From a virus (taxonomy: Duplodnaviria; Heunggongvirae; Uroviricota; Caudoviricetes), in the IMG/VR virus record IMGVR_UViG_2778261446_000005, positions 1 through 14,506 of that record: DNA of 14,506 nt; one strand, written 5' to 3'. Shown here piece after piece: positions 2,832 through 8,554 of this stretch. The notes under the pieces are model-generated. The model made no database searches, was not told the origin of the DNA, and was given only the letters and a program-made list of their open reading frames with translations. A program made the position numbers and the translations under genes. Position 1 is the stretch's first letter. Every line of letters begins with the position of its first letter.

Positions 2832-3128
2832 TCAGTCATTACTGATAGCGCCATAGCGTGAGCGGTAATTACGCAGGCGCGGGTCGATATATTCAGGGAA
2901 GTGGGTATATGTGGCTTTGCGGAATGGTCGGATTGATGTCTGGTAAATTCGCTCTCGTTCTTCTTTCTCTGCAAGCCATATACAGTGGCGAAATTCCTTT
3001 TCCTCTTTCGTTTCCTGCGGTAGCGACATTATCAGGTCGTAGTTTTTTCTGAATTTATCCAGCACCTCCGATACGGAATTGCCGGAACAGCGGCGCGGGT
3101 CATCCGCACCATACAGAGGCGCTGGCAT
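2832..3128 (-). CDS. Hypothetical protein (98 aa); possibly an Abc-type anti-RecBCD protein by position and size only
   Basis: ORF from track, AAGGAT SD upstream of ATG at 3128. Sits just downstream of erf-ssb, where P22 carries abc1/abc2; I cannot confirm sequence similarity from memory. Confidence 0.45.
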
Positions 3129-4150: not shown

Positions 4151-4321
4151 TCAGAATGGACATTCCCCAAGGAAATAACGCTGATTTAATACTTCGACTC
4201 GGGACAAATTAAGGCATACCCGCATTCCTTCGCGGTCGCCATTATGGCGATACCAGAGAGCTTTCTGCGTGTACATGCGTCTCTGTAACTTGCTCTCCTT
4301 CACTGTGGTTGCAAGTGACAT
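4151..4321 (-). CDS. Small basic protein (56 aa), arf-like by position
   Basis: Manual translation. ATG at 4321 with strong AAGGAGA SD; stop TGA at 4153..4151, 11 nt before the erf start. MSLATTVKESKLQRRMYTQKALWYRHNG... Lies where P22 has arf, but identity is not verified. Confidence 0.4.
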   Translation of the reverse strand: MSLATTVKESKLQRRMYTQKALWYRHNGDREGMRVCLNLSRVEVLNQRYFLGECPF

Positions 4322-4400
4322 GAATATCTCCTTCGTTGCCGATTAAATCTTTCATCTGACGAATGAATTCTTCGTCTGACCAGTTATCTGTGAAACTCAT
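4242..4400 (-). CDS. Small acidic ORF (52 aa), overlaps the 4151..4321 ORF in another frame
   Basis: Manual translation. ATG at 4400 overlaps the kil-like stop as ATGA, with AGGA SD. MSFTDNWSDEEFIRQMKDLIGNEGD... Overlaps the next ORF by 80 nt, so one of the two may be non-coding. Confidence 0.3.
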   Translation of the reverse strand: MSFTDNWSDEEFIRQMKDLIGNEGDIHVTCNHSEGEQVTETHVHAESSLVSP

Positions 4401-4549
4401 TTCCTGCGATACCACGGAAGGTTGATAGCTGATTTCATCGCTTTATTTGCTTCAAGCCACATTTTTGAATCACCAATAAATCGGGCTATTACTGCTTTGT
4501 TCTGTGCAGCACGAAGCATCTGGTGATTGATGGCTATTTCATTGCGCAT
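4397..4549 (-). CDS. kil: Kil-like small host-killing protein (FtsZ inhibitor family, 50 aa)
   Basis: Manual translation MRNEIAINHQMLRAAQNKAVIARFIGDSKMWLEANKAMKSAINLPWYRRK. The motif IA-FIGD-KM matches what I recall of lambda Kil. GAGG SD. Directly downstream of cIII, as in lambda and P22. Confidence 0.55.
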   Translation of the reverse strand: MRNEIAINHQMLRAAQNKAVIARFIGDSKMWLEANKAMKSAINLPWYRRK

Positions 4550-4665
4550 AATAAGACCTCAACTCTTTTCCATCCGTCACGTAATTTACGGGTGATTCGT
4601 TCAAGTAAAGATTCATTTAGTTGGAAGGCACCCATGCGAGCGCCTCCCGCGATTGCGTAAATCAT
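4534..4665 (-). CDS. cIII: CIII-like protease (FtsH) inhibitor (43 aa)
   Basis: Manual translation MIYAIAGGARMGAFQLNESLLERITRKLRDGWKRVEVLLCAMK. The ESLLERITRKLRDGWKR core matches the lambda CIII amphipathic helix. AAGGAA SD upstream of ATG at 4665. Confidence 0.85.
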   Translation of the reverse strand: MIYAIAGGARMGAFQLNESLLERITRKLRDGWKRVEVLLCAMK

Positions 4666-4689
4666 GGGTGGTTCCTTATGTTGGTTTTA

Positions 4690-5658
4690 TTAGTAGGTTA
4701 TTTTTGTTGCGAATACTTCGCCTTTTACGATGGCTGTTATGATATTTTTAGCAACATCTTCTGATGCGCCAACCTTGATAAGGTCAGCAAGTATTTTGTT
4801 ATTTACTTCTTTCCGGTGAGCTTTATCCTTTGCTCTACGCTCTTCTTCGTCCTTGATTCTTTTTTCTTCTGCTATTCTGGCTTGCTCTTTTTCTTCAGCC
4901 TCGCGCCGGATTCGTTCTGCCTCCTCCTGTGCTTTTCGGCGTTCTGCTTCAATTGCTGCCTGCTTTTCTCTTTCAGCTCGTTCTGCTGCCTCTTTTGCTT
5001 CGCGCTGTGCTCGTCGCTCGGCTTCAATGCGTTCACGCTCTGCACGTTCCGCTGCGGCCTTAGCTTCTGCTTCTCGCCTTGCTGCTGCTTCAATTTCGGC
5101 TTTTGCCTTTGCTTCGGCTTCTGCTCTGGCTTTCTCTTCAGCTTCTTTTTTTAAGCGTTCTTCATGCTCTCGCTTTTCCTGCTCCGCTTTGAGTCTTGCC
5201 TCTTCTCTTTGGCGGTCAAATTCGCGATCCATCAAAATCGCTATTTCATGGTCAGACTCAATTTGCTTTGCGAGAGCTTCAGCTGCTGCCTTAGCTTCTT
5301 CTTCGGCTTTAATCCGTGCCTGTTCCTCCTCATAATCAGTAAGAGGCTGGCGCGCCTTGGCTTTCAGTTCATCAAGGCGATCGCGCACTGTCTTGCGGTT
5401 GGCATCAATTAGCTTTGGAATTTCCTTCAGTTCAGCAACAAGGTCTTTGCCAAGACCATCGAGATATGTTTTCGTCTGCGCAACTTTATACGCCAGAGAA
5501 GCGATCTCCTTTCTGCCCTTTGCCGTTGTGATATCAGGCACAAAGGACATAACTTCACGTTCAACCTTTTGGAGAATTTCTTCAATCTGGTCGGCAGACT
5601 GAAATACAGTCATTGCATTTGCTTTTTCAATAACAACTAAATCTGTTACTTCACTCAT
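4690..5658 (-). CDS. Unknown protein (322 aa): about 110-aa N-terminal domain, about 170-aa Glu/Ala/Lys/Arg-rich predicted single alpha-helix or coiled coil, about 40-aa C-terminal domain
   Basis: Track ORF 4690..5754; I place the start at the ATG at 5658 (MSEVTDLVVIEK...) because it is 7 nt after a GGAGG SD and directly after an intrinsic terminator. Central region is repetitive EAK/ERA-type sequence (e.g. EEKARAEAEAKAKAEIEAAARREAEAKAAAERAERERIEAERRAQREAKEAAERAEREKQAAIEAERRK). Confidence 0.7.
   Translation of the reverse strand: MSEVTDLVVIEKANAMTVFQSADQIEEILQKVEREVMSFVPDITTAKGRKEIASLAYKVAQTKTYLDGLGKDLVAELKEIPKLIDANRKTVRDRLDELKAKARQPLTDYEEEQARIKAEEEAKAAAEALAKQIESDHEIAILMDREFDRQREEARLKAEQEKREHEERLKKEAEEKARAEAEAKAKAEIEAAARREAEAKAAAERAERERIEAERRAQREAKEAAERAEREKQAAIEAERRKAQEEAERIRREAEEKEQARIAEEKRIKDEEERRAKDKAHRKEVNNKILADLIKVGASEDVAKNIITAIVKGEVFATKITY
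4850..5340 (-). repeat. Low-complexity coding repeat encoding the E/A/K/R-rich helix
   Basis: Plus strand is pyrimidine-rich with reiterated gcttc/tgctgc/ctcttc units. It generates two spurious plus-strand ORFs (4816..5154, 4853..5335) rich in Cys/Ser/Phe/Leu. Confidence 0.6.
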
Positions 5659-5670
5659 ATATCCTCCATC

Positions 5671-5700
5671 AAAAAAAATTGCCCTCACACGGGAGGGCAA
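5671..5700 (-). terminator. Intrinsic terminator (minus strand) immediately upstream of the ER/K-rich gene
   Basis: Minus strand reads TTGCCCTC-CCGTGT-GAGGGCAA followed by TTTTTTTT (plus 5671..5678 is the A-run). Not followed by a T-run on the plus strand, so it is strand-specific. Confidence 0.7.
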
Positions 5701-5791
5701 AGAAGATTTCCAATAATCAGAACAAGTCGGCTCCTGTTTAGTTACGAGCGACATTGCTCACATAGCAGACTCGTAAATCTGCTATAGGCGC

Positions 5792-5950
5792 TTATTCGCA
5801 TCGCATGACAACATCAAATTTTTCGAGATTACTTTGTCGCAACAATCCTTCTTCGACGCGGTCAGCTTTTCTATAATTATCAAATTCGAAATGTTTAATT
5901 ACTTCTTTCGTTTCTCGATCTATAACTTCAACAATGTATTTCTTATTCAT
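5792..5950 (-). CDS. Small hypothetical protein (52 aa, MNKKYIVEVIDRETKEVIKHFEF...)
   Basis: Manual translation; below the ORF-track cutoff. ATG at 5950..5948 overlaps the upstream gene stop (TAATG). Stop TAA at 5794..5792. Confidence 0.45.
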   Translation of the reverse strand: MNKKYIVEVIDRETKEVIKHFEFDNYRKADRVEEGLLRQSNLEKFDVVMRCE

Positions 5951-6246
5951 TACTCATCACCTATGGCTTTTCTGATTGCTGCGAGACCTTTATTAACAGC
6001 TCCATACCATTCTGGATATGTTGTCGTTGTTCTATTTTTGGATTGCTTAAGTAATAACTGAAGTGCTTCGAGAAGGTCAGGTGCTGCCGCTATTAGATTG
6101 GCATCTTCAATGCATTGAACTTCCTCACAGATTGCAATATACGAACGCCAGCCTGCGCCATTTTCAAGTGAGTCTGCCTGGATGATTTTAATCTCATCGC
6201 CATCCATCATTATTTCCCATTTACCTTCAGTACCTTTAAATTCCAT
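5950..6246 (-). CDS. Hypothetical protein (98 aa) with an Ea22-like IAAAP-LLEAL motif
   Basis: Track ORF 5950..6270; start moved to the ATG at 6246 (MEFKGTEGKWEIMMDGDEIKII...), which has a CAGAGG SD at 7 nt. Contains ...NLIAAAPDLLEALQLLLKQ, resembling the motif in the 1427..2035 protein. Confidence 0.5.
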   Translation of the reverse strand: MEFKGTEGKWEIMMDGDEIKIIQADSLENGAGWRSYIAICEEVQCIEDANLIAAAPDLLEALQLLLKQSKNRTTTTYPEWYGAVNKGLAAIRKAIGDE

Positions 6247-6268
6247 GTTAGCCTCTGTTGTTAGTGCC

Positions 6269-6294
6269 AAAAATAAAGGCCACCATCAGGCAGC
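6269..6294 (-). terminator. Probable intrinsic terminator (minus strand), stop codon of the upstream gene in the loop
   Basis: Minus strand reads GCTGCC-TGAT-GGTGGC followed by CTTTATTTTT. The 6-bp stem needs two G-U pairs that exist only in the minus-strand RNA. Same architecture as the 527..550 terminator. Confidence 0.45.
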
Positions 6295-6537
6295 CTTGTT
6301 GTAAATGTTGCAGGTATCAAGTAAGTAATTAGATGGAGCGCCATAAATTATGAATTCATCGTTTGTAGGGTCAATCTCCATCTCTTGGCCTATTGCCATT
6401 CTTGCGTCAGTGTCATCAGCGGCGAAGCATAAAACAGCCCACGCCCCCATTGTTTTAAAAAGAACTGCAATTGGCTGTGGTTTTACTGAATTTGCGTTAG
6501 CGCGAAAATCACAAATCGCACTTTCATGAAATTCCAT
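6286..6537 (-). CDS. Hypothetical protein (83 aa)
   Basis: ORF from track. GAGGTGA SD upstream of ATG at 6537. MEFHESAICDFRANANSVKPQPIAVLFKTMGAWAVL... No family recognised. Confidence 0.5.
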   Translation of the reverse strand: MEFHESAICDFRANANSVKPQPIAVLFKTMGAWAVLCFAADDTDARMAIGQEMEIDPTNDEFIIYGAPSNYLLDTCNIYNKAA

Positions 6538-6653
6538 ATCTCACCTCAATCGTAATAAGCTGGAATTGATTTTCCGCGTTGCTTCTGGCGGCCTGAACAG
6601 GTCACACCCATTTCACTGTGTGGCTTGCTGTAATAAATTCGGTTAGTTCAGAC

Positions 6654-6676
6654 AATAAAAAACCCACCGAAGTGGG
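6654..6676 (-). terminator. Intrinsic terminator within the early-left operon (tL1-like)
   Basis: Minus strand reads CCCAC-TTCG-GTGGG followed by TTTTTTATT, starting immediately after the TAG stop (6679..6677) of the first gene downstream of N. Confidence 0.7.
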
Positions 6677-7015
6677 CTATGACCATTTTTTATTTGGATT
6701 TCGTTGGTGAGCGTGATTAACAACTCTGTGCATTACATCCTCATATTTTTCATCTTCAATTTTTTCGACATCGCGAGGAAATGGTGTTGCTAATGCTTTG
6801 TCAACTTTGTCCATTGGGTCTTCATTAATCTTATATTCAGGACCGTCATCTATAGCATTAAATCCAGGTGTTACACCGTTTTTTAATGCATATGCTATCC
6901 TCTTTTCCCATCTCGCTATTCTCCTCCTGTCTCGAGATGTAAGACCTCTATCAGATACTTTTCTGTTTTGTCCGCGGTCAGGATTAACATAAATAGTCTT
7001 TTTCACCATAAGCAT
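6677..7015 (-). CDS. Hypothetical basic/acidic protein, first gene downstream of N (about 110 aa)
   Basis: Track ORF 6677..7021 begins at a TTG; ATGs at 7015 and 7009 are the likely starts (MLMVKKTIYVNPDRGQNRKVSDRG...). No SD, 2 nt after the N stop, suggesting translational coupling. Occupies the slot lambda uses for ral. Confidence 0.5.
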   Translation of the reverse strand: MLMVKKTIYVNPDRGQNRKVSDRGLTSRDRRRIARWEKRIAYALKNGVTPGFNAIDDGPEYKINEDPMDKVDKALATPFPRDVEKIEDEKYEDVMHRVVNHAHQRNPNKKWS

Positions 7016-7017
7016 AC

Positions 7018-7323
7018 TCAATAAGCACCGTACGGTAGTTTACTGTACAATTTTATTTTTTGGACTGCATGTATTTTGTTTCCTAACGGGTTTGAATCTT
7101 TGTAATAAATACTTCTATTTTTTCGAACGACTTCTTCTTTCTTCTTGCAGCAAAGGCTTCCTAGTGATGCTGCTTTGTCTGCTCTGACGCAACCAGAGAG
7201 CTTTAGCGCAATTTTTCGCGCCAGTGCTTCATTACTGCGTCGCTCGGCAATAAGTTCTGCTCTGCGAGCTTTGTAGCGGCTTTTTGCCGTACCTTTGGAT
7301 TCTTTCCAGACAATGGTTACCAT
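7018..7323 (-). CDS. N: Antitermination protein N, phage phi21 type (101 aa)
   Basis: Translation from the ATG at 7323 begins MVTIVWKESKGTAKSRYKARRAELIAERR, the arginine-rich motif I recall for the phi21 N boxB-binding peptide. AAGGAGA SD 6 nt upstream. The in-frame ATG at 7353 has no SD. Located just downstream of pL and nutL. Confidence 0.85.
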   Translation of the reverse strand: MVTIVWKESKGTAKSRYKARRAELIAERRSNEALARKIALKLSGCVRADKAASLGSLCCKKKEEVVRKNRSIYYKDSNPLGNKIHAVQKIKLYSKLPYGAY

Positions 7324-7433
7324 GATGGTCTCCTTTAAGTGGCTTTGGCGCATGACGCGTCGAGGTGCTTATCTTCTCGATCGCTGTCTTGCAGCTGCAA
7401 TTCGCGCCATCCCCAAAACCACTCAAGTTCTGG

Positions 7434-7474
7434 TCTCAACGGTTAGGTTGAGAGTCCGTCGATGTTAAAGAGCC
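7434..7474 (-). promoter_or_regulatory. nutL: boxA (7464..7474) and boxB hairpin (7434..7453)
   Basis: Minus strand reads GCTCTTTAACA (boxA consensus) then, 10 nt later, TCTCAAC-CTAACC-GTTGAGA (7-bp stem, 6-nt loop). The loop CUAACC is shared with the nutR hairpin at 8584..8601. Confidence 0.7.
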
Positions 7475-7514
7475 TGCCAATCTGTTCCGTTTGGCTTCCA
7501 GCGTCCTGCTGATG

Positions 7515-7580
7515 GCTTAAATTTAAGACTTCTTAATTTATTGGTCAAGTGCATTTTTGAAGAAAACTTAATTTTATGGG
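7515..7580 (-). promoter_or_regulatory. pL promoter with OL operator sites
   Basis: Minus strand has TTGACC (plus 7543..7548), a 17-nt spacer and TAAATT (plus 7520..7525). Overlapping palindromic P22-type operator half-sites AATTAAGAAGTCTTAAATT, and a second AATTAAG...CTTCAAAA site upstream of the -35. Confidence 0.6.
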
Positions 7581-7613
7581 CGTGAATTTAGTTTATCCTT
7601 GATTTTTAACGGG

Positions 7614-7637
7614 AAATAAAAAAGGGGCGAAAGCCCC
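7614..7637 (-). terminator. Intrinsic terminator immediately after the c2 stop
   Basis: Minus strand reads GGGGC-TTTC-GCCCC followed by TTTTTATTTCCC. The c2 stop TAA is at 7640..7638. No T-run follows the hairpin on the plus strand. Confidence 0.75.
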
Positions 7638-8288
7638 TTAAGGAAGGTTTGCTAGCTTGGCATCAACGACAACGCCAATGATTTTACAGTTCCCATTGAT
7701 TTCAATCATTGGGTATTGTGGATTGAGTGGTTTCAGGAATTTTCTACCGGCATCAATAACTAACTTTTTGAATGTCGCCTCGTTTTCTCCTTCAAGTTTG
7801 GCGACTACCAGCTTTCCATTACGTGGTTCGACTTCTGGGTCGACGAGAATAATCATCCCCTCAGGAATACTCAGTCCTGCCGGGGCAGTCATTGAATCGC
7901 CTTTAACGTCGAGCCAAAAAGAGTCTTCAGAACAATCTACCGTTGTGTCGTACCAGTTATCTATTGCACGCCTATGATATGGCTCTACAGCTTCCATCCA
8001 ACATCCTGCGCTTACCCAACTAATTAGAGGATACGAACCTCTTGGATCATGCCTGCTGTGATAGGCAATGTTTGAAAGACTATCCTCTCCTTTCAACAGG
8101 TAATCAGGGGAGCACTGCAAAGCCTTGGCTAAGGCCAATAGGTTTTCGCCATTGGGCTCAGTTTCAGATCGCTCCCATTGGGAAATAGCAACATTAGACA
8201 CGCCAACCATCTTGCCAAGGGCAGCCTGCCTAATCTTGAGTTCTTTTCTGCGAGCGCGAATACGCTCACCCATCAGTTGTGTATTCAT
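7638..8288 (-). CDS. c2: Prophage repressor, P22 c2 type (CI-like, HTH plus LexA-like S24 autocleavage domain, 216 aa)
   Basis: Translation MNTQLMGERIRARRKELKIRQAALGKMVGVSNVAISQWERSETEPNGENLLALAKALQCSPDYLL... matches my recollection of P22 C2 almost throughout. C-terminal domain has the G-D-S-M and K-L motifs of RecA-cleavable repressors. Divergently oriented to cro. Confidence 0.9.
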   Translation of the reverse strand: MNTQLMGERIRARRKELKIRQAALGKMVGVSNVAISQWERSETEPNGENLLALAKALQCSPDYLLKGEDSLSNIAYHSRHDPRGSYPLISWVSAGCWMEAVEPYHRRAIDNWYDTTVDCSEDSFWLDVKGDSMTAPAGLSIPEGMIILVDPEVEPRNGKLVVAKLEGENEATFKKLVIDAGRKFLKPLNPQYPMIEINGNCKIIGVVVDAKLANLP

Positions 8289-8360
8289 AGTTAAGACATC
8301 TTAAATAAACTTGACTTAAGATTCCTTTGGTGGATAATTTAAGTGTTCTTTAATTTCGGA
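8289..8360. promoter_or_regulatory. OR operator region with pR (rightward) and pRM (leftward)
   Basis: Three P22-type operator palindromes: AGTTAAGACATCTTAAAT (about 8290..8307), CTTAAGATTCCTTTGG, and ATTTAAGTGTTCTTTAAT (about 8337..8354). pR -35 TTGACT at 8311..8316 and -10 GATAAT at 8333..8338. c2 ATG at 8288 abuts the leftmost operator (leaderless-type arrangement). Confidence 0.7.
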
Positions 8361-8368
8361 GCGAGTCT

Positions 8369-8554
8369 ATGTACAAAAAAGATGTTATTGACCACTTCGG
8401 AACCCAGCGTGCTGTTGCTAAAGCACTAGGCATTAGCGATGCAGCAGTCTCTCAGTGGAAAGAAGTTATCCCAGAGAAAGACGCCTATCGATTGGAAATC
8501 GTTACAGCTGGCGCCCTGAAGTATCAAGAAAGTGCTTACCGCCAAGCGGCATAA
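8369..8554 (+). CDS. cro: Cro repressor, P22 type (61 aa)
   Basis: Translation MYKKDVIDHFGTQRAVAKALGISDAAVSQWKEVIPEKDAYRLEIVTAGALKYQESAYRQAA matches my recollection of P22 Cro. GGAG SD upstream. Confidence 0.85.
   Translation: MYKKDVIDHFGTQRAVAKALGISDAAVSQWKEVIPEKDAYRLEIVTAGALKYQESAYRQAA

Follow-up and report, generated by a model that had tools for sequence, protein, structure and literature searches.

The window analysed here is the whole 14 506-nucleotide stretch of a Caudoviricetes virus deposited as IMG/VR record IMGVR_UViG_2778261446_000005. Three small genes, which we call orfA, orfB and orfC, lie on its minus strand where an earlier sequence-only reading had placed open reading frames of 83, 98 and 52 amino acids, and all three are co-oriented with pL (Table 1). 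Read along this strand, the order is pL, nutL, N, nun, a terminator-like hairpin, a relic of N, orfA, a second terminator-like hairpin and the overlapping pair orfB/orfC, followed by a further hairpin, a third terminator-like site, a gene rich in ER/K, cIII and kil. The pL-like promoter sits downstream of a terminator (7622–7639) that trails the P22-C2-type repressor gene cI (7638–8288), and P22-type cI and cro are found in the operon context. The boxB hairpin of nutL is presumably of the phi21 type; a boxA is annotated at the equivalent site in the record of phage mEp235. The candidate nutL (boxA plus boxB) and the N gene upstream, whose product carries an arginine-rich motif of the phi21/HK620 type resembling the phi21 N peptide 1nyb, are what would be expected of a lambdoid pL operon, and the interval itself, on the pL strand, has N on one side and cIII/kil, which were used as anchors, on the other. 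In related loci the neighbouring genes carry the Pfam assignments Lambda_CIII and Lambda_Kil. The ER/K-rich gene forms the downstream edge of the interval and is itself an optional module. An Rfam search over 4300–8400 (E ≤ 1) returned no RNA family, and the plus-strand and nested open reading frames of the interval are without a PHROG match.

This setting, in the pL operon, 3′ of a nutL that we take to be of the phi21 type and of N, and 5′ of cIII/kil, bears out the proposal that this stretch corresponds to the ral region in lambda and in P22. Position, strand and flanks agree with the N-to-cIII region of these phages (ral, sieB and ea10 in lambda; 24, sieB, ral, orf78, 17, c3 and kil in P22), as do the putative intrinsic terminators accompanied by nutL and N, and the presence of Ral in the orfA slot of relatives of the window. 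The differences are that orfA, orfB and orfC are not Ral, SieB or Ea10, that nun has been added after N, and that the ER/K-rich gene lies 5′ of cIII.

The gene ending at 6677 had been taken for N; it is in fact an HK022-type nun, and N is the next gene upstream. The likeness to HK022 concerns this upstream gene only, the product of which is near-identical to the Nun chain of PDB 6alg; in contrast to HK022, nun here sits 3′ of an N gene within the same operon. To our knowledge, HK022 itself is without N. The last ~27 residues of the N protein are unlike those of the N alleles found directly 5′ of orfA in relatives. A replaced C-terminus of N counts against the N-dependent expression considered below, although two isolated phages, mEp235 and mEpX1, already have the same N–nun order in their annotation. 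Between nun and orfA lies the 3′ end of another N allele, the stop codon of which is 8 nucleotides 5′ of the orfA ATG, so placed that the Shine–Dalgarno sequence of orfA overlaps the relic.

Table 1. Features of the pL operon region, in minus-strand order (positions are those of the window).
Feature	Position	Strand	Basis and remarks
pL-like sigma-70 promoter (TTGACC-17-TAAATT)	7520..7548	-	Consensus scan; position relative to cI and its terminator
Candidate nutL	7434..7473	-	boxA GCTCTTTAACA 7473-7463; boxB hairpin TCTCAACCTAACCGTTGAGA 7453-7434; read from sequence
Antiterminator N, 101 aa from ATG, SD AAGGAG	7018..7323	-	phrog_271 E 1e-31; PDB 1nyb E 1e-6; mEp235 annotation
nun, HK022-type transcription termination/exclusion factor	6677..7015	-	phrog_5632 E 4.8e-71; PDB 6alg chain N E 2.5e-71; 1hji_B
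Intrinsic-terminator-like hairpin after nun (AGCCCAC-TTCG-GTGGGTT + T tract)	6655..6678	-	
Relic, 3′ end of another N allele (RIYYSKPHSEMGVTCSGRQKQRGKSIPAYYD*)	6546..6641	-	16/20 identical to lambda/HK97-type N, E 3e-11
orfA, 83 aa, acidic (pI 4.2)	6286..6537	-	phrog_2471, end-to-end match E 8e-61
Intrinsic-terminator-like hairpin after orfA (AAGGCTGCC-TGAT-GGTGGCCTT + TATTTTT)	6269..6297	-	
orfB, 98 aa from ATG, acidic (pI 4.5)	5950..6246	-	Pfam PF27050; phrog_1273, end-to-end match E 4e-31
orfC, 52 aa	5792..5950	-	phrog_6949, end-to-end match E 6e-40
11-bp conserved hairpin directly 3′ of orfC, no T tract	5761..5786	-	
Conserved leader + intrinsic-terminator-like hairpin (TTGCCCTC-CCGTGT-GAGGGCAA + T8, 5700-5671)	5671..5760	-	
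ER/K-rich coiled-coil gene	4690..5658	-	phrog_1376; 'TolA' in public records
cIII	4534-4665		Read from ORF translations
kil	4397-4549		Read from ORF translations

Three small acidic proteins

orfA, orfB and orfC are genuine genes under purifying selection: each has a full-length PHROG match, and the pN/pS ratios among their alleles are 0.21, 0.23 and 0.08, respectively. The products are small and acidic, and no transmembrane segment was evident in any of them by a hydropathy check. They had been described as unrecognisable, and searches against Pfam, NCBIfam, PDB-sequence and PADLOC profiles likewise gave nothing meaningful for any of the three. It should be noted that the Pfam set used for the direct profile search did not include the PF27050 model, and that the assignment of orfB to this family comes from precomputed matches. 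Homology to Ral, SieB or Ea10 would have given the genes an identity, and none of the three belongs to these families: there is no match to Ral (PF11058) in Pfam or PHROG, none to SieB or to the Ssb-like Ea10, and no transmembrane segment as in SieB. Nor did the anti-phage defence models of PADLOC match any of the products.

The orfA product is identical at 82 of 83 positions to gp34 of mEp234 (AFM76313.1), which is annotated in the mEp234 record as similar to VT2-Sap20 of VT2-Sakai. The gene is found in 403 of 5426 complete E. coli genomes (7%). A profile search of 1.84 billion representatives returned only seven proteins, two of which (P0153 and P0154) are long repeat proteins and were discarded as spurious; an AlphaFold2 model (pLDDT 53) was too poor for use.

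The orfB product is a member of PF27050 (Phage_P22_Y8K6, after P22 orf78), an uncharacterised family; the exact sequence carries the precomputed match in six contigs, as do nearly all of the full-length homologues listed. It has an N-terminal beta region, a LIAAAPDLLEAL motif and a C-terminal helical hairpin. One RefSeq record from E. coli names it 'XkdD/Y8K6 family phage-associated protein', and nothing relevant to PF27050 or Y8K6 was found in the literature. The protein is 45% identical to ORF18 of ST104, which is annotated as similar to P22 orf78 and located between ral and gene 17; gene 17 and sieB of P22/ST104 occur on either side of this homologue. orfB (with orfC) is present in 179 of the 5426 genomes. 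A relationship to the N-terminal region of Ead/Ea22, prompted by a common GxW ... ANAxxIAAA pattern, was rejected by BLASTP and by hhalign (probability 0.35%). Also rejected was the idea that the variable C-terminus of orfB covaries with the downstream gene as a cognate pair.

The orfC product is identical at 51 of 52 positions to ATN92755.1 of APC_JM3.2, and at least three other small genes occur as alternatives in its slot.

Hairpins at the gene junctions and predicted expression from pL

A terminator scan of the minus strand found hairpins followed by T tracts at 6678–6661, 6297–6276 and 5700–5679, close to where the sequence-only reading had put its three terminators. The region contains 11 such sites, compared with 4.2 ± 2.4 in shuffled sequences; the energies of the nun, orfA and ER/K-side hairpins are −10.3, −13.9 and −13.2 kcal/mol, with z-scores of −2.5, −2.5 and −4.0. 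It had also been claimed that each terminator is followed closely by a Shine–Dalgarno sequence and a start codon. This is correct for the second (AGAGG, then 5 nucleotides and the orfB ATG at 6246) and for the third (GGAGGA at 5667–5662, with the ATG of the ER/K-rich gene at 5658), but not for the first, which is ~115 nucleotides from the orfA ATG with the N relic in the gap. orfB and orfC are not separated by a terminator; the stop of the one and the start of the other overlap as TAATG.

In relatives, the hairpins go with particular genes. The one after nun accompanies nun. The one after orfA, together with its T tract, remains with orfA regardless of which gene comes next, and the stop codon of orfA is mostly within its loop; the conserved junction consists of the 3′ arm of this hairpin, the T tract and the Shine–Dalgarno sequence of orfB. 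Upstream of orfB, hairpin and T tract are present in 42 of 50 distinct contexts, with at least three different 5′ arms that vary with the upstream gene. The leader and hairpin at 5671..5760 accompany the ER/K-rich gene, the terminator being found in 14 of 18 distinct contexts with its stem kept and its loop bases varying. Relatives without orfC have a different hairpin in place of that at 5761..5786. In the annotation of mEp234 by its authors, both the orfA hairpin and that of the ER/K-rich gene are rho-independent terminators. It is plausible, by analogy with lambda, that these conserved sites act as intrinsic terminators which N-modified polymerase would read through.

The explanation that we favour, and which we regard as probable, is that the interval is the accessory region nearest the promoter in a pL operon of lambdoid type, modular in its make-up and consisting of N-dependent delayed-early genes. 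Following the lambda paradigm, RNA polymerase from pL would need to be modified by N at nutL in order to pass the three putative intrinsic terminators, and in the window orfA, orfB and orfC would then be delayed-early, N-dependent functions. The sequence-only reading had extended N-gating to the whole interval, and for orfA this does not hold in most relatives: orfA lies directly 3′ of N, with no terminator between them, in 45 of 62 distinct upstream contexts, the N stop codon being mostly ~9 nucleotides 5′ of the orfA ATG. With this arrangement, orfA would share a transcript with N and would not be gated by it; being 5′ of the first terminator, it would be made along with N. The position of the genes hints that their products may act at an early stage on factors of the host or of competitors, in counter-defence or host takeover, each with its own target.

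The hairpins also mark places at which sequences have been exchanged. Breakpoints in homology to relatives cluster at 6630–49, 6540–49, 6250–6309, 5940–49, 5750–59 and 5650–79, with 60 at 5750–5759 and 52 at 5670–5679, and homology blocks begin at 6630–6649 in 59 cases. At the level of sequence comparison this shows that modules are swapped at conserved terminator/Shine–Dalgarno junctions. Could the hairpins, then, be mainly recombination linkers, or RNA-stability or processing elements, with N having little role in expression? The coincidence of breakpoints with hairpins would fit, as would the modest energies (−10 to −14 kcal/mol) and the conservation of a hairpin at 5761–5786 that has no T tract. 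However, hairpin and T tract are kept 5′ of orfB even where the 5′ arm has been replaced, in the terminator of the ER/K-rich gene the stem is kept and the loop varies, the mEp234 authors annotated both as rho-independent terminators, and the phage has a complete nutL and N; we consider this explanation improbable.

Morons are reportedly due to Juhala et al. 2000 and to Hendrix, and the idea of modular linkers is said to be that of Susskind and Botstein. The interval resembles both in its single-gene insertions with a terminator, its mosaic joints at gene boundaries and its short conserved junctions. The three genes might be lysogenic-conversion morons, expressed while the prophage is repressed so as to shield the lysogen by superinfection exclusion or defence, in the manner of sieB, rex and nun, with the terminators serving as insulation. 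That a terminator closes each unit, that the adjoining nun is an exclusion factor, that SieB lies within the equivalent interval of the P22-like ST104 and that defence-like genes occur nearby in relatives (for example BstA_C beside cI in locus L165) are all consistent with this. Yet no sigma-70-like promoter was found upstream of orfA, orfB or orfC: the sole promoter-like site of the interval is inside orfA, and such sites are not enriched (5 against 6.4 ± 2.1 expected). The genes all point the same way as pL, the N stop codon directly precedes orfA in most relatives, and there is neither a PADLOC match nor an evident transmembrane segment. The lack of a detected private promoter and the dependence on the pL transcript argue that these are accessory genes embedded in the operon and not autonomous morons, and we judge expression from the repressed prophage to be improbable.

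Assortment of the genes among relatives

Comparison of the same interval in related phages revealed a variable hotspot, with ~85 clusters of open reading frames in 68 distinct N-to-cIII intervals. The three genes had been described as a single cassette; in these intervals, however, orfA, orfB and the gene 3′ of orfB assort independently. The combinations include orfA alone, orfA with orfB, all three, orfB without orfA, and orfB followed by c7 or c39 in place of orfC. The orfA slot is filled in other phages by Ral, orf184, an Nmad5 gene or others, and where orfA is absent, Ral, orf184, c40 or Nmad5 lies directly 5′ of orfB (Ral, for example, in loci L170 and L086). orfA and Ral co-occur in none of the 68 intervals; this mutual exclusion shows that they share a slot and is not evidence of a shared function. 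orfA, orfB and orfC are separate modules in positional slots and do not form a co-inherited system.

That they might nevertheless be one co-functional cassette, such as a multi-subunit anti-defence or toxin–antitoxin-like unit, is suggested by their adjacency and common orientation, by the recurrence of the trio in some prophages (for example loci L004 and L165–L168) and by the TAATG overlap, which suggests translational coupling of orfB and orfC; the assortment data already go most of the way to refuting this extremely unlikely reading, in that orfA stands alone in mEp234, the matches in Stx phages cover only the orfA end and the stretch beside the ER/K-rich gene and leave orfB and orfC uncovered, many loci have orfB but no orfA, the place of orfC after orfB may be taken by c7, by c39 or by nothing, the same C-terminal type of orfB pairs with orfC, c7 and c39, and a terminator separates orfA from orfB.

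The particular combination in the window, N–nun–orfA–orfB–orfC–ER/K-rich gene, was not seen in 172 fetched loci, and the best-covering records that were listed from complete E. coli genomes do not show it either.

The catalogued accessory region and a possible role in counter-defence

An accessory region with ral and orf184 has been described by Silas et al. 2023 (bioRxiv 10.1101/2023.04.06.535777), and orf184, from mEp213, fills the slot directly 5′ of orfB in surveyed relatives. The interval corresponds to that region and is an already catalogued accessory hotspot of lambdoid pL operons, of which the window presents a new combination of modules, and the finding is an ordinary one; the genes themselves have already been entered as hypothetical proteins in the records of many sequenced phages and prophages, Shiga-toxin phages among them. 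What is added is modest: a corrected anatomy (nun after N, an N relic in the gap, independent modules), a slot map in which orfA is a positional alternative to Ral, and the terminator/Shine–Dalgarno junctions as the points of module exchange.

The table of genes tested in the same study includes the mEp234 homologue of orfA (UDP0060), the APC_JM3.2 homologue of orfC (UDP0149) and an Sf101 protein with the C-terminal half of orfB. No phenotype is reported for the orfA and orfC homologues, which are not among the counter-defence or conditional-lethal genes reported with the limited hosts and phages used (bioRxiv 10.1101/2023.04.06.535777), and a follow-up paper (PMC12373910) makes no mention of these open reading frames. 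The counter-defence genes found in the equivalent interval of relatives are Ral, Nmad5 and the phrog_14587 family, which PHROGs labels 'anti-restriction protein'. For orfA, orfB and orfC, position is what suggests a possible anti-defence role. A more specific proposal is that orfA, a 9-kDa acidic protein in the Ral/orf184 slot and confined to enterobacterial lambdoid phages, is a new immediate-early immune inhibitor, with orfB and orfC as further, independent counter-defence factors; we hold this to be rather unlikely. Should an anti-defence function be established for any of the three, it would matter to several per cent of the E. coli genomes sequenced. As for targets, that of an orfA inhibitor would be a host immune system (restriction or an abortive-infection sensor), and those of orfB and orfC would be missing from the strains that were screened.

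Layout of the early leftward operon

The window comes from a lambdoid phage whose immunity is of P22 type and covers its early region; the studied interval is part of its leftward operon. This interval is a variable accessory stretch of the N operon, as the sequence-only reading had it in general terms; ORF and terminator scans also found the three ORFs and three hairpin/T-tract sites where it had placed them. That description was wrong on composition and on the upstream gene, which it took for N and which is an HK022-type nun. The arginine-rich motif of N itself resembles the phi21 N peptide (PDB match 1nyb). The N-nun tandem is a viable arrangement, since it is annotated already in the isolated phages mEp235 and mEpX1.

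Features and homology breakpoints of the leftward operon
Feature	Position	Strand	Details
C2-like repressor (cI)	7638-8288	minus	
Cro	8369-8554	plus	
pL-like promoter TTGACC-17-TAAATT	7548-7520	minus	promoter scan
nutL boxA GCTCTTTAACA	7473-7463	minus	read from sequence
nutL boxB hairpin TCTCAACCTAACCGTTGAGA	7453-7434	minus	read from sequence
N	7323-7018	minus	ATG with SD AAGGAG; phrog_271, E 1e-31
nun, HK022-type	7015-6677	minus	phrog_5632, E 4.8e-71; PDB 6alg chain N, E 2.5e-71
Terminator-like hairpin after nun	6678-6661	minus	with T tract; -10.3 kcal/mol
orfA	6537-6286	minus	83 aa
Terminator-like hairpin after orfA	6297-6276	minus	with T tract; -13.9 kcal/mol
orfB	6246-5950	minus	98 aa
orfC	5950-5792	minus	52 aa
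Hairpin after orfC	5786-5761	minus	no T tract
Terminator-like hairpin before ER/K-rich gene	5700-5679	minus	with T tract; -13.2 kcal/mol
ER/K-rich (coiled-coil) gene, then cIII, kil	from 5658	minus	
Breakpoint cluster	6630-6649		N relic start
Breakpoint cluster	6540-6549		N stop/orfA SD
Breakpoint cluster	6250-6309		orfA terminator/orfB SD
Breakpoint cluster	5940-5949		orfB/orfC junction
Breakpoint cluster	5750-5759		
Breakpoint cluster	5650-5679		ER/K terminator and start
Minor breakpoint cluster	6070-6089		LIAAAPDLLEAL motif within orfB

An SD and start codon had been described a few nucleotides after the first terminator; the actual gap to orfA is ~115 nt and has a relic of N inside it. Translation of 6641-6546 gives RIYYSKPHSEMGVTCSGRQKQRGKSIPAYYD followed by a stop, with 16/20 residues identical to the C-terminus of lambda/HK97-type N (E 3e-11), of which, judged by this similarity, it is a relic. 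The order on the minus strand (6546-7353) is N with a phi21/HK620-type ARM, nun with its own terminator, and the ~95-nt relic of a second N allele's 3' end. The C-terminal ~27 aa of the intact N are unlike those of N alleles directly adjoining orfA upstream. It looks as if N had received a nun-carrying block at its NRIYY motif; on this reading the nun insertion here carried its own terminator and pushed the N 3' end away.

The orfB stop and orfC start overlap as TAATG, and no terminator separates the two genes. An in-frame ATG at 5754 would add 32 codons to the ER/K-rich ORF (354 aa in all), right through the terminator hairpin (5658-5754, minus); public annotations and a strong SD favour the start at 5658.

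Terminator-like hairpins, exchange junctions and proposed N control

Terminator-like sites in 4500-8400 number 11, against 4.2 ± 2.4 in shuffles, and the strongest on the minus strand all fall between genes and share their orientation. Whichever gene comes next, orfA keeps its hairpin and T tract. Upstream of orfB, 42 of 50 distinct contexts have a hairpin and T tract and then an unchanging SD. The 5' arm of this hairpin depends on which gene precedes it: AAGGCTGCC...GGTGGCCTT behind orfA, GGCCGcATAGtCGGCC behind other genes. The terminator of the ER/K-rich gene, present in 14/18 contexts, has a constant stem and a variable loop. Because hairpin-forming ability is kept with different arms, these comparisons argue that the hairpins are selected as structures. 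That they are linkers or stability elements only is made less likely, though possible, by this structural conservation, and we consider it improbable. Breakpoints, taken as the ends of homology blocks when the window is compared with all loci, form sharp clusters, a pattern that fits homologous exchange at short conserved linkers.

Behind the 11-bp hairpin without T tract (5761-5786) come, in this order, a conserved leader of ~60 nt and the ER/K-rich gene terminator (5701-5786, minus). Relatives without orfC (e.g. loci L002 and L011) have another hairpin, CACTGTGTATTCA...TGAATACACGG, at this position, with the same leader behind. Region 5701-5786 had no Rfam match; a processing site, a stability element and a linker are possibilities for the hairpin.

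The window has a complete nutL and N and, further downstream, a terminator-like site ahead of each of orfA, orfB-orfC and the ER/K-rich gene; if lambda is a guide, transcription of these genes would depend on N-modified polymerase. The proposed N-gating is plausible here, but a terminator lies upstream of orfA in only 17 of 62 distinct contexts among relatives. Most relatives have the N stop codon ~9 nt upstream of the orfA ATG; where N directly precedes it, orfA would, on the lambda pattern, be immediate-early and made with N, and the hairpin after orfA would be the operon's first terminator. A sigma-70-like site (TTGACC-16-CATAAT, 10/12) lies inside orfA (6347-6374, minus), ~50-70 nt upstream of its terminator. 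It could in principle yield a short 3'-end-derived RNA, and it may be chance, since promoter-like sites are not enriched (5 versus 6.4 expected).

The three proteins and their possible roles

The three ORFs are real genes, because each matches one PHROG over its full length in profile searches and the alleles of related loci show a pN/pS of 0.21 (orfA), 0.23 (orfB) and 0.08 (orfC). None had a match in Pfam (local copy), NCBIfam, PDB sequences or PADLOC. These searches assign no function to any of the three. orfB carries the precomputed Pfam domain PF27050 (Phage_P22_Y8K6), a family without known function, and is named ‘XkdD/Y8K6 family phage-associated protein’ in one RefSeq E. coli record.

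The orfA family is very narrow: at 90% identity it falls into 19 clusters, and every named source belongs to Enterobacteriaceae. An exhaustive search with its profile against 1.84 billion representatives returned 7 proteins, and two of these are spurious matches to repeat proteins. The E values of these two (P0153, 3126 aa, 1e-34; P0154, 1357 aa, 3e-13) arise from adding up many weak repeat matches; both look unrelated to orfA, and such scores are a warning for profile searches with short queries. The orfC family is narrow too (12 clusters), and that of orfB broader (164 matches). One orfB homologue, ORF18 of the P22-like phage ST104, is annotated as similar to P22 orf78 and lies between ral and gene 17, the same operon position as orfB. 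Alignment of orfB gives a conserved FKGTxGxW start, the LIAAAPDLLEAL motif, a variable middle and an AAISKALGEE tail. ORFs of lytic phages of Klebsiella, Salmonella, Cronobacter and Proteus, mostly ~140-150 kb in size, share 49-55% identity with its N-terminal half. orfB is a mosaic around the LIAAAPDLLEAL motif, with at least three unrelated N-terminal halves on one C-terminal helical part. Structure prediction reached pLDDT 53 for orfA and 71.5 for orfB, whose model found only non-specific helical-hairpin matches in a fold search. With pI values of 4.2 (orfA) and 4.5 (orfB), two of the proteins are clearly acidic; orfC (5.8) is mildly so.

Judged by their place in the operon, the proteins may serve early in counter-defence or host takeover. 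Few of the genes found in these slots are annotated: Ral, the PHROGs ‘anti-restriction protein’ family and an Nmad5 nucleotide-modification-associated protein. A further one is orf184, which triggers the gop-beta-cII abortive-infection system and has been placed in the ral accessory region (Silas et al., 10.1101/2023.04.06.535777). The genes tested in that screen (Supplementary File 3) include UDP0060 (mEp234 AFM76313.1, 82/83 identical to orfA), UDP0149 (APC_JM3.2 ATN92755.1, 51/52 identical to orfC) and an Sf101 protein with the C-terminal half of orfB; all three are absent from the genes with a reported phenotype there, and the follow-up paper (PMC12373910) does not mention them. The negative is weak, because the screen used a limited ECOR host set with T-phages, P1 and lambda (10.1101/2023.04.06.535777). 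That orfA or its neighbours are new anti-defence proteins is a tentative and rather unlikely proposition. Alternatively, the three could be prophage-expressed morons or defence genes, which is doubtful given no private promoters upstream of them in the promoter scan, no PADLOC matches and no hydrophobic TM-like segment in the hydropathy check.

Further down the operon, a 98-aa ORF (2832-3128, minus) resembles UDP0062, the P22 Abc2-like anti-RecBCD protein of Silas et al., and Pfam Anti-RecBCD_p2 is found on a similarly placed gene in related loci. If this ORF is anti-RecBCD, a known counter-defence gene shares a transcript with orfA-orfB-orfC.

Assortment among relatives

The window proteins were mapped onto 160 IMG/VR loci anchored on orfA or orfB, together with annotated phages and genomes. 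The 81 loci with both cI and cIII/kil gave 68 distinct intervals and ~85 ORF clusters, which bears out the proposal of a variable accessory interval. The slots run N; [nun/DUF5484/others]; [orfA/Ral/orf184/c40/Nmad5/others]; orfB; [orfC/c7/c39/c8]; [DUF2528]; [ER/K-rich gene]; [c17]; cIII, kil, where c numbers are ORF clusters and c17 has the PHROGs label ‘anti-restriction protein’.

mEp234 has orfA by itself; elsewhere orfA is joined by orfB, or by both orfB and orfC, and orfB also occurs without orfA; orfA and Ral are together in none of the 68 intervals. In Stx phages, matches to the window are confined to the orfA end and the part adjoining the ER/K-rich gene. Since the three genes assort independently, the trio is a chance combination of modules and no functional cassette. 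A single co-functional cassette, as the first description implies, is refuted by this assortment, one orfB C-terminal type being followed by orfC, c7, c39 or nothing, and is highly improbable.

The exact combination N-nun-A-B-C-ER/K gene was not seen outside the window among the loci compared, and every piece of the interval is found elsewhere at 94-99% identity. The interval is an already catalogued hotspot of known hypothetical genes. A second variable hotspot lies beside it, from the repressor gene to pL/N, where relatives carry other cargo: a BstA_C-domain protein (L165 4033-4938), or HicAB and an uncharacterised gene (mEp234; L002 445-1575).
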